From: a virus
Lineage: Duplodnaviria; Heunggongvirae; Uroviricota; Caudoviricetes
Direction: 5' to 3' (one strand)
IMG/VR virus record: IMGVR_UViG_2529293141_000015
Location: 1,630 to 65,629 of that record
Length of the DNA stretch: 64,000 nt
The position numbers are program-made. Below, piece after piece: positions 11,301 through 14,300 of this stretch. Each line of letters starts with the position of its first letter. The first letter of the stretch is position 1.

Positions 11301-14300
11301 CAGTAACCTGGGGCGTCCGTGTGATTCGGGTTTACGTTTTTGCTGCGATTGTCTTTGTCTTTGAGAGTGGAAACCATATTTGCTACAGTTTCTGGTTTCT
11401 TTCCTTCAGCTTTTTCTTTCAGTGTCTGCCCTGTTTCTGCAATGAATGGAATGCGGATTTCCATCTGGTAACCGTCTGCGCCAGTCTTTCTGTTTGTGGT
11501 TAATACTTTCTGGAGGACGAGTCCGATTTTCTTTCCGTGAAACTCAGGTGCAACATATTTACTGACGGAAACCATATGCTGCGTTAACTGCCCAATTCCT
11601 GTGCATCCCATCATGGCGTGAATAATGCTCGCCCCAAATTTATTTTCAGTGCCGTCATTCTTCTGAACACAAACACTGAGATATTGGATTTTCCGTCCGT
11701 CGTCGGATTCTCCAGAAAACTCAATGAATCGGGCACCTTTTTCTGATTGCTTGAGTTCTGCTTCGGTGATGTTAATGATATGCGCACCCGTTTCGGTAAT
11801 AAAACCACCTTGTCCGGCGGTCAGTGCTGATTCTTCGTTATAAGTAAAAATCACTTCATCCATTAGTTATTAACCCCCCATTGTTCTCCAAATACAAAAC
11901 CAATTTCTGCCAGTGCTTCGTCCATTTTGTCGATGAACTCCGGCACCATCTCATCAAAACTCGCCATGTACTTTTCATCCCGCTCGACCACGACATAATG
12001 CAGGCCTTCACGCTTCATGCGTGGGTCGTAGTTGGCGAAGTACCAGGCGTCCTTGTCTGTAACCCACATGCTGAATTGCACCTGGGCCATGTAAGCAGGC
12101 TTGATAGCGTCAAAGCCGCCAAGCCGGAACTTCATGAAGTCGCGGGAAGTAAAGGGGCATTTAAGCTCAAGACCGTTACCGTCACTGCATAAACCATCGG
12201 GAGAGCAGGCGGTGCGCATGCTTTCGTCACGAAAAATTATGGGTGTTTCCGAGACGGTAACATCCGCGATAAATTCAAAGAGGGCACGGGCATCATCTTC
12301 ATATTGCTTTCCCCATGCGAGCGACTTAGCGTTAACTTCCGGTGCCACGCCAGTACAAACTTCAGCCAGCAGGGTGTGGAAGTATGACATTTTTGTATCA
12401 GGCCATTTGCTGCCGGAACGTGGCTTTGCTATCACATTGTGAACTTCTGAAGCAGTGATAACACCGAGTCTCAGCTTGTGCCATCCATCATCGCCCTGGT
12501 CGAGGCTGGTAATATCCACGCCAGTTCGCTGGAGAATAATTTCTGGTGTCATGACACGGCCTCGCTGTTATTTTCCGTGGTGGCGTGAATTTTCGCTTCC
12601 GCCGTGGCCTTGTTTCTGGCAGCTTTCTTTTTGACAAAATCAAGCGTTTTGACAGCTTCTTCCTGAGAGAGAGCTTCATGTGATGCAATCGTGCGACGGA
12701 ATGTTTTGGAACATACGGGAAGCAGGTCATCCCATGTCTTGTTAATTTCGGTGATTGCCTGAGTGATCTCATTGATAATCTCATCTGATGCGGGAGTGAC
12801 GTCACGCTCAGGGATATGATCAGCATTCAGGATGATACCTTCACCGGCCTGAGTGTTCAGGTAGTCGATAGCTGTATCCAGGCGATCGCGACGGGGCCAG
12901 TATTTGCTGGCGCGCTTAACAATGGCTTTTCTGGCCATTTCATCGGGGAAACTATCCCACGGGCTACTTCCTCCGTTATTTCCGGCTTTGCTGCACGCCC
13001 TGATGACCTCGATTTCCCTGTTGCTCATCTCTTCGGTCAGATAGTCGCCTTCGGATGTTTTTACGACACAATAACCGCCAATGCGTGCGCCCCTGTCTAC
13101 GAAGGGGTTGTATTTGTGCGTGGGGGCGCAGTCAATACCGTTGGACTCGTAAATGTCCTTCTCGTAAACAAGTTTGCATTGCCCCCACTGAATGGCTCCT
13201 GTGACCTGTGCCAGATGCAGAAGCCCCATATAACTGATATCCAGGCATACAGCCTTTTTTCGTGGGACCAGATACGCCAGCTTGCTGGCCGGGTTCAGGG
13301 TTATGCCGATGGCGGCAACATTGATGATAGCGTTCTGTGCGCTGGGCAGATTTGCCCTTGCTGTGTCAGCCAGAAAGGCATTTTTCTGGAATTGCTGAAT
13401 TGCAAACTGACTTTCCTTCGCCCATGTCAGCGTCGGTTCAGTTAATGCCTCGCAGAAAAAGCGCTCCTGCTGCTTAACAAATTCAACGATATCGAACATT
13501 TTTTGGTCCTGAAAATCAGAAAGGACAGGGGGAGAATTTTCTCTCCCATTCTTCTTCCGCCCGAGCATAGGCGATCGCTGAGATATAATCGTTGTACGCC
13601 TCTTCAGCTTTTTCGCCAGTGAGTGCTAGTTGGGCTTCTTTGGGTAAAAAAAGGCTGCTCATAAGCAATGGTTTATCGGGGAACATGCTGATAAGCTCCT
13701 GCGCCCGATCATCGATCCATTTATCCTTTTCATCCTGAATTTGCTGATTAATCCAGCGACGCTCCTCTATGCGGTCGCAGGTGAGGTATGCGTTCATGGC
13801 GGAACTCCTGATTCCGGTTAATGCATTAAATTAATTTGTCGGGAAAGCTGACATACAGGGCAGTTACATTCTTCCTCCTGCTCCTTAGCGAAGAAATATG
13901 CAGCGGCCTGTAATGCGATATCTTCTGGATGTTCCGCGATAAACATAACATTGCCTTCCGTATCAATAACAGAAATAGCCTCATCAGACAGGACGACAAA
14001 ATAGGCGATGATTTTATCATCCATAAAAACTTCTCCCATTATCGTTCCTGCTGGAGTTACGACGCTTTTTACATTGATATTTATTTTTTGATTGAGCATG
14101 ATATTTCCCTTCAGGCTGGTGAGATTAACGGTTGGCCTTTATTGTTCAGGTAAACTTCTATTGCATCTGAGATAATGCGAATTTTTTCAATCAGTGAATG
14201 TGCGTAAAGTGCATTATTAACGTTCGCTGACGCCATGTAATAACGCCCGTTGTAAAGAATTGCTGTGCCGGGTTTAACGTCCTCGCGAGAAACTAATGCG

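Follow-up and report, generated by a model that had tools for sequence, protein, structure and literature searches.

A RecT-type annealing core carrying a Redβ-type C-terminal domain in the recombination module of an Stx-type lambdoid phage

Introduction

The DNA analysed here (the window) is a stretch of 64,000 nucleotides (nt) covering positions 1,630 to 65,629 of the Caudoviricetes record IMGVR_UViG_2529293141_000015, and its element of interest is an annealase, a single-strand annealing protein (SSAP) of 316 amino acids (aa) encoded on the minus strand at 12549..13499 beside the gene for a lambda-type exonuclease (Exo). We consider it highly probable that this annealase is a two-domain protein, in which an interchangeable RecT-type core is combined with a Redβ-type C-terminal domain (CTD) acting as adaptor for the Exo partner, and that the CTD and exo move as one cassette. 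With less confidence, though still on the favourable side, we propose that the Redβ-type CTD serves as a portable cassette for partner specificity, carried by at least three core families (Bet, RecT and ERF), usually co-transferred and co-evolving with lambda-type Exo and exchanged at the conserved patch that ends the core.

The gene pair is already known and annotated. It appears in RefSeq as 'RecT family recombinase' and 'lambda exonuclease family protein', its annealase is labelled 'RecT-like ssDNA annealing protein' (ssDNA, single-stranded DNA) in Shigella phage Ss-VASD, and the module of phage TL-2011c was catalogued in 2025 as SAP type 4, accompanied by Exo and SSB-2 (PMC12315714). Of 5426 complete E. 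coli genomes, 148 contain the pair, which also occurs in many Shiga toxin (Stx) phages. In the structural literature of 2019, the Redβ CTD was said to be without significant homologues, and according to a review of 2023 it is 'unknown' if a comparable CTD is used by RecT-type annealases (PMC11611040). The 2025 survey of lambdoid modules supposed that partner-interaction domains are shuffled and left a domain-level analysis as 'beyond the scope' (PMC12315714). Domain-level evidence was not found in the literature searched, nor was a paper on structure 8TFU; the phi80 genome paper may already note the RecT core and Bet tail of phi80 Rec. The object itself is ordinary, and it is the comparisons reported below that give a concrete, testable answer to the question that the literature poses about the CTD.

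Results

The annealase is built of a RecT-type core, a linker and a Redβ-type CTD

The frame 12549..13499 is a complete coding sequence (CDS), stop codon included. A longer open reading frame (ORF) of 339 aa reaching 13568 was rejected in favour of the ATG at 13499, because an AGGA lies 7-8 nt upstream of this ATG, the GamL stop codon stands just before it and the N-termini of homologues align there. Within the protein, hidden Markov model (HMM) matches, AlphaFold2 (AF2) modelling and Foldseek delimited a RecT-subfamily annealing and oligomerisation core at residues 1-204 (12888..13499, minus strand, as for the other parts of this gene). The motif KRASKYWP (codons 195-202, 12894..12917) is the last conserved motif of the core and also the natural crossover site observed in the P0003 comparison below. 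The core is followed by a flexible interdomain linker (residues 205-231, 12807..12887) with an AF2 confidence score (pLDDT) below 50, and by the three-helix Redβ-type CTD (residues 232-300, 12600..12806), by homology an Exo- and SSB-binding module (SSB, single-stranded DNA-binding protein), which was delimited by phmmer against PDB sequences, AF2 and Foldseek. A lineage-specific C-terminal extension (residues 301-316 plus stop, 12549..12599) closes the gene; Bet alignments end at about residue 300, and the extension has low pLDDT (55, then 49) and no lambda counterpart. The AF2 model was built on 19 homologues and had a mean pLDDT of 78.5, with values of 80-89 in the core except for one 10-residue block (58, residues 171-180) and of 75-91 in the CTD helices, which lie at residues 239-251, 256-267 and from 279 onward. 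Lambda Redβ is likewise organised as N-terminal domain (NTD), linker and CTD (PMC6393309).

The initial annotation had described the annealase as a RecT-family core fused to a lambda Bet-like tail, and the domain-by-domain searches in Pfam, NCBIfam and PDB bore this out. The RecT-type signature CSKAGNNGGSSPWDSFPDEMARKAIVKRASKYWP that it had pointed to is present at residues 169-202. The annealase matched the Pfam RecT family (PF03837) with 86.7 bits (cut-off 24), but since lambda Bet also matches this family (115.6 bits), Pfam by itself cannot part RecT from Bet. In NCBIfam, the annealase passed the RecT subfamily model TIGR00616 (65.8 bits, cut-off 52.65) and gave no match to the Bet model TIGR01913, whereas lambda Bet matched TIGR01913 alone (169.5 bits). 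The score for the Rac-type RecT equivalog NF007351 was 71.8 bits against a cut-off of 296, and the protein, judged by its sequence, is not an orthologue of Rac RecT. When all PDB sequences were searched with phmmer, nothing was returned for the N-terminal two thirds of the annealase; the Foldseek search of PDB with the N-terminal domain placed Listeria RecT (LiRecT, 7ub2) first with an E value of 1.8e-7, followed by 7ubb, Sak and Rad52, and the Redβ NTD (7UJL) was absent among the 50 PDB matches listed. The identity between the window core and the Bet core was 23-24%, which blastp does not detect (E 2.6). Identities of the core were 68-76% to homologues from Serratia, Yersinia, Morganella, a Vibrio phage and metagenome contigs, 55-59% to phi80-type proteins and 48% to PY100. 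By analogy, this core would bind and anneal ssDNA.

For the tail, the Redβ CTD was the sole find of phmmer among all PDB sequences (8tfu, E 1.7e-18, residues 225-299; 6m9k, E 2.3e-14). The CTD alone aligned to lambda Bet in blastp with 51% identity and an E value of 2e-24, and Foldseek superposed its model on 8tfu and 6m9k with TM-scores of 0.87-0.94 and a root mean square deviation (rmsd) of 0.7-0.8 Å at 51-53% identity. Residues 232-300 are homologous to the lambda Redβ CTD, as a three-helix domain corresponding to Redβ residues 193-261. The resemblance to the lambda Bet C-terminus noted at the outset is thus one of true homology, but the match is less close than had been suggested: identity is about 52% over residues 232-300, and the last 16 residues are unmatched. 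No DNA homology to lambda was detectable anywhere in the annealase gene, the CTD region included; the event was not a recent transfer from lambda to this phage.

Alignment and domain mapping against lambda Bet and Rac RecT, which had been proposed as the check, revealed a breakpoint: full-length blastp aligned only residues 56-202 with Rac RecT (33% identity) and only residues 178-300 with lambda Bet (42.6% identity). Although the blastp alignment with Bet, starting at residue 178, takes in the GPW...EM.RK motif shared by the cores, the idea of a plain divergent Bet or RecT without any breakpoint, whose tail similarity would be compositional or due to chance, is already refuted and deserves practically no credence. 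The CTD on its own gives the PDB match and the superposition described above, the core is invisible to the Bet core and to TIGR01913, and because HMM, PDB phmmer and fold matches differ by domain across a disordered linker, the annealase is not uniformly a divergent Bet or a divergent RecT.

The CTD and exo are inherited as one cassette

Identity matrices were calculated for the core (residues 1-204), the CTD (residues 232-298) and Exo in 25 non-redundant annealase/Exo pairs, after an earlier version with 11 pairs. CTD identity correlated strongly with Exo identity (Spearman 0.85, Mantel p=0.0002), core identity tracked Exo identity weakly (Spearman 0.29, Mantel p=0.037), and the correlation between core and CTD was 0.18 (Mantel p=0.09). 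Measured against the window, the core, CTD and Exo identities were 24%, 52% and 87% for lambda, 73%, 42% and 71% for Serratia P0008, 74%, 28% and 50% for Yersinia P0021, and 71%, 29% and 40% for the metagenome protein P0085. The part of the gene that encodes the CTD forms, with the overlapping exo, a single inherited cassette. The annealase stop codon and the exo start codon share an ATGA, and the coordinates of lambda bet and exo yield an identical 4-nt overlap.

A second and more recent exchange of exo alone was considered for the gap between the Exo (87%) and CTD (52%) identities to lambda. It is not required, because the pair lies on the general CTD-versus-Exo trend, in which the CTD evolves faster; such an exchange is possible given the sharp onset of lambda DNA homology at the exo ATG.

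A natural recombinant was identified in E. coli (P0003, 312 aa; locus L009). Upstream and through about codon 191, its DNA is 97.8% identical to the Salmonella P0112 locus, which has a Kapi1-type core and a Gp157 partner. From about codon 191 through exo and beyond, P0003 is window-like, mostly with 93-100% identity per 60-nt segment. A single crossover fits 717 of the 737 informative sites, and it falls inside a 20-nt stretch that is identical in all three sequences and encodes KRASKYWP (P0003 codons 191-198). P0003 is an exchange of the core against a constant CTD and exo cassette at the core-linker boundary. Since this cassette is joined by recombination to different annealing cores at the conserved stretch encoding KRASKYWP, the CTD behaves as a partner-specific adaptor and the core as interchangeable. 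The module exchange that had been suspected is supported by P0003 and by the CTD-Exo correlation, but it is neither recent nor peculiar to this phage.

These comparisons also bear on vertical descent, according to which RecT and Redβ inherited the CTD from their common ancestor and the CTD evolved more slowly than the cores, no domains having been exchanged. RecT and Bet do form one Pfam family, and Bet-type CTDs occur at all divergence levels of the RecT clade, PY100 and the Vibrio phage included. Against this stand the range of CTD identity, from 20% to 96%, within one tight core clade (68-76% to the window core), and the window CTD being nearer to that of lambda (52%) than to those of relatives (20-42%) whose cores are 68-74% identical. 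P0003 is an unambiguous recombinant and its crossover contradicts vertical descent; in addition, the CTD occurs on ERF cores, with 64% identity to that of lambda, and Rac RecT has none. We regard vertical descent as very improbable.

Tails and downstream partners change together

A search of 5.8 billion proteins returned many prophage proteins of Serratia, Yersinia, Morganella, Providencia, Proteus and Klebsiella with 57-67% identity; because 92-95% of the query is covered, these homologues include the CTD. The architecture of RecT core and Redβ tail is widespread (phi80 and many Enterobacterales prophages) and is not particular to this phage. Within the one well-conserved core clade, the tails are of discrete types. 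In HK639, Kapi1 and Salmonella P0112, an alternative tail is followed by Sipho_Gp157 rather than by an exonuclease. The possibility that this tail is a diverged Bet-type CTD was rejected at an hhalign probability of 1%, and for that reason the alternative tail is treated as unrelated. Among the best 80 of 585 related stretches from viral contigs, an annealase with a Bet-type CTD preceded each of the 41 Exo neighbours, and one with the alternative tail each of the 33 Sipho_Gp157 neighbours, with zero exceptions; these counts are not independent events, because the sets hold many close relatives.

Two Stx2a phages, LC727854 and LC727867, matched the annealase at residues 1-230 only. They were rejected as alternative-tail variants because of an insertion sequence (IS) in LC727854. 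In this phage (Stx2a_JNE090861; L002 4690..5950), the annealase is cut at about codon 230 by an IS3-family (IS629-like) element; the CTD is lost, there is no exo ORF behind it, and the result is a natural knock-out of the module. LC727867, whose match ends at the identical point, is probably interrupted likewise.

The search of 1.84 billion representative proteins with the CTD profile gave 103 clusters at E <= 1e-3, many of which were lambda Bet fragments or short ORFs. ERF-family cores (Pfam PF04404) bearing the CTD were found in P0131, P0158 and P0168, and the P0131 CTD is the one with 64% identity to the lambda CTD (E 6e-25). Downstream of P0156, whose core has no family assignment, lie a YqaJ nuclease and an SSB. 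A further group (P0150, P0157 and P0162-P0165), actinobacterial-looking by composition, has RecT or Gp3-like N-termini and two to three tandem, weaker CTD-like motifs (GR.I.S..DLT..EA..VI). They may be distantly related to the CTD adaptor; the weak motif overlaps Pfam GemA at sub-threshold scores.

The predicted CTD-Exo interface is conserved at its hot spots

The exo gene (11863..12552, minus strand) encodes a 229-aa lambda-type 5'-3' exonuclease that matched Pfam YqaJ (PF09588) with 99.7 bits (cut-off 22). It had been described as near-identical to lambda Exo; the two are similar, with 87.6% protein and 81.8% DNA identity. The DNA homology to lambda begins exactly at the exo ATG (12553) and stops at 11878, 16 nt before the 3' end of the gene. 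R28, D109, D119, E129 and K131 are all conserved; in lambda Exo we take D109, E129 and K131 to be catalytic and R28 to bind the 5'-phosphate.

The contact residues of lambda Exo and Redβ are known, and mutation of Exo L91 or F94 or of CTD L223 or F249 abolishes the complex (PMC6393309). Mapped onto the window, these contacts mark helix E of Exo (residues 83-97; 12262..12306, minus strand) as the predicted docking ridge for the CTD. Six of the eight Exo contacts are kept (Q83, D87, L91, F94, L184 and Y186) and two are changed (T90A and T95I). In the CTD three of nine are kept, namely R229 (window R268), F249 (F288) and K253 (K292), and six are changed: L223V (V262), Q226K, I227T (T266), L250V, Q252K and E256R. 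Of the four complex-abolishing hot spots, L91, F94 and F249 are identical and the fourth, L223, is conservatively replaced by V. The exonuclease interface had been thought preserved; on the sequence evidence it appears to be so at its hot spots only, the remaining contacts differing from lambda as listed. The replacement of I227 by T in the CTD together with that of T95 by I in Exo looks like a reciprocal swap, and a Morganella-type set pairs CTD F223-K227-M249 with Exo M90-T91-Y95. Differences between window and lambda Exo occupy 5 of the 15 helix E positions versus 24 of the 211 positions elsewhere (one-sided Fisher p=0.029). In near-identical copies of the annealase (96-99%; L022-L038), residue 262, equivalent to Redβ L223, is V, L or I, and the Exo contacts A90 and I95 are unvarying alongside this polymorphism.

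The main rival explanation invokes linkage rather than function: the CTD would travel with the adjoining exo while mainly binding host SSB, and its contact with Exo would be secondary or absent in this lineage. It agrees with the position of the crossover, since the conserved 20-nt patch upstream of the CTD is the nearest recombination-prone patch to CTD and exo, with the ATGA overlap of annealase and exo, with the uptake of the SSB C-tail in the same pocket of the Redβ CTD (PMC6393309; PDB 8tfu), and with the ERF protein P0131, which bears the CTD but is not directly followed by a recognisable exo on its short contig. Against it stand the conservation of Exo L91 and F94 and of CTD F249 and K253, and the shifts of interface positions in lineage-specific sets on both proteins, from the lambda-type I227/T95 to the window-type T/I95 and to the Morganella set. 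The enrichment of substitutions in helix E speaks against it as well, as does the finding that cores with the unrelated tail always adjoin another gene, Gp157, among the best 80 of the 585 stretches. We judge linkage rather unlikely, and it is compatible with the adaptor model, the two not being mutually exclusive.

Several points nevertheless count against the adaptor model. Because the CTD and exo are contiguous, their co-inheritance could be linkage alone, and the correlated pairs are not phylogenetically independent of one another. Lambda differs at 6 of 9 CTD and 2 of 8 Exo contact residues, and we infer the CTD-Exo contact itself from homology. P0131 has GamL upstream, but on its 1.8-kb contig no exo can be recognised directly after it; from this layout, the CTD can evidently function with no Exo next to it, which fits its second documented role, SSB binding. 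Finally, the transfer may have run from the RecT clade to the Bet clade or in the reverse direction.

The recombination module and its surroundings in the window

The annealase belongs to the early-left recombination module (GamL, annealase, Exo and SSB-2) of an Stx-type lambdoid phage or prophage. In DNA, the annealase-exo region (1.7 kb) is shared at 99-100% identity with Shigella phage Ss-VASD and three Stx2a phages (P13374, TL-2011c and phiON-2011), and on a larger scale 82% of a 24-kb part of the window aligns with Stx phages at about 95-96% identity. The first gene of the module, gamL (13516..13797, minus strand), encodes a phi80-type RecBCD inhibitor (NCBIfam NF033500 phi80_GamL, 149.8 bits against a cut-off of 40; phrog_1050) with 74% identity to phi80 GamL.

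The last recognised gene of the module (11276..11863, minus strand) encodes a non-canonical phage ssDNA-binding protein of the SSB-2 or HK620 HkaK type (phrog_743, 1e-68), for which no Pfam match and no PDB sequence match were obtained. The C-terminus of this protein reads ...GYWQYGSDSF, and the terminal Phe is retained both in the full-length copies from related loci (...YG[SG]D[SN]F) and in a partial match with 58% identity (...DYPPF). Bacterial SSB has a similar acidic-Phe C-tail, to which the Redβ CTD binds, and because of the resemblance the phage SSB-2 might dock in the CTD pocket. Beyond it on the minus strand lie a gene of unknown product (10853..11200, phrog_204) and a DUF2303 gene (9968..10789, Pfam PF10065).

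On the other side of the module, a restriction-modification pair is located in the early-left region at 15797..18216 (minus strand). Its Ss-VASD homologues carry the annotations restriction endonuclease (317 aa) and DNA methyltransferase (489 aa), and the related phage PA8 has a PstI modification methylase among the features of this 24-kb region. Between the antirepressor and endonuclease genes, Ss-VASD has a 'transcriptional regulator' CDS and exceeds the window in length by about 0.9 kb. A pair of C4 antisense RNA and isrK small RNA (sRNA) occurs in two copies, at 15096..15283 and 3702..3884 (both minus strand), with Rfam scores of 78.9 and 70.1 bits for RF01695 and of 60.3 and 53 bits for RF01394. 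The copy at 15096..15283 lies just upstream of a Rha/Ash-type antirepressor gene (14394..15179), overlapping the start of its long ORF, a layout that resembles the control of the antirepressor by C4 RNA in phages P1 and P7. A full-length match to the sRNA STnc100 is present at 24683..24896 on the plus strand (RF02076, 197.9 bits).

Discussion

The comparisons suggest a working model for the annealase by analogy with lambda Red. The Rad52-like core of the RecT subfamily (residues 1-204) would bind and anneal ssDNA, with the disordered linker of about 27 residues joining it to the CTD. The groove between CTD helices 2 and 3 would clasp helix E of the trimeric lambda-type Exo, and this clasp would load the annealase onto the 3' overhang made by Exo. 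The same pocket would then take the C-terminal tail of host SSB, perhaps also that of phage SSB-2, and binding of the SSB tail would bring the filament to lagging-strand ssDNA. In Redβ, the CTD binds the SSB C-tail via the same pocket as Exo, and K253 is the SSB and helix-cap residue (PMC6393309).

If the CTD is indeed a portable cassette, compatibility with exonuclease and SSB could be re-programmed by swapping tails, and the question whether RecT-type annealases bind their partners by a Redβ-like CTD would be answered. The natural chimeras and their defined junction, KRASKYWP plus the linker, could be used to engineer recombineering pairs of chosen exonuclease and SSB compatibility.

Among known systems, the Stx-phage module of TL-2011c, P13374 and Ss-VASD has essentially the same DNA as the window and shows no difference in the object. 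The HK639, Kapi1 and Salmonella P0112 type has some of the closest cores (58-62% identical overall) and, in HK639, GamL upstream, but it differs in its unrelated tail and in having Sipho_Gp157 downstream in place of Exo. Rac RecT shares with the window a core in TIGR00616 and the SKAGNNG...EMA.K motif, but lacks the three-helix CTD and is partnered by RecE, not by a lambda-type Exo. Lambda Red (6M9K, 8TFU and 7UJL) agrees with the window in the CTD (52%), Exo (87.6%), the ATGA overlap, the NTD-linker-CTD layout and the hot spots L91, F94, F249 and K253. It differs in the core subfamily and in having Gam instead of GamL; compared with it, the window annealase has the additional 16-residue tail, and the pair T266/I95 replaces I227/T95.

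Phage phi80 has the same order of GamL, annealase and Exo as the window, the same joining of a RecT-type core to a Bet-type CTD, and a lambda-type Exo that is 82% identical to that of the window and 85% identical to lambda Exo. Its core is about 52-55% identical to that of the window, its CTD is 76% identical to that of lambda versus 52% for the window CTD, and no SSB-2 gene directly follows its exo. RecT-phi80 promotes recombination in vivo and has been described merely as 32% identical to Redβ (PMC3945230).

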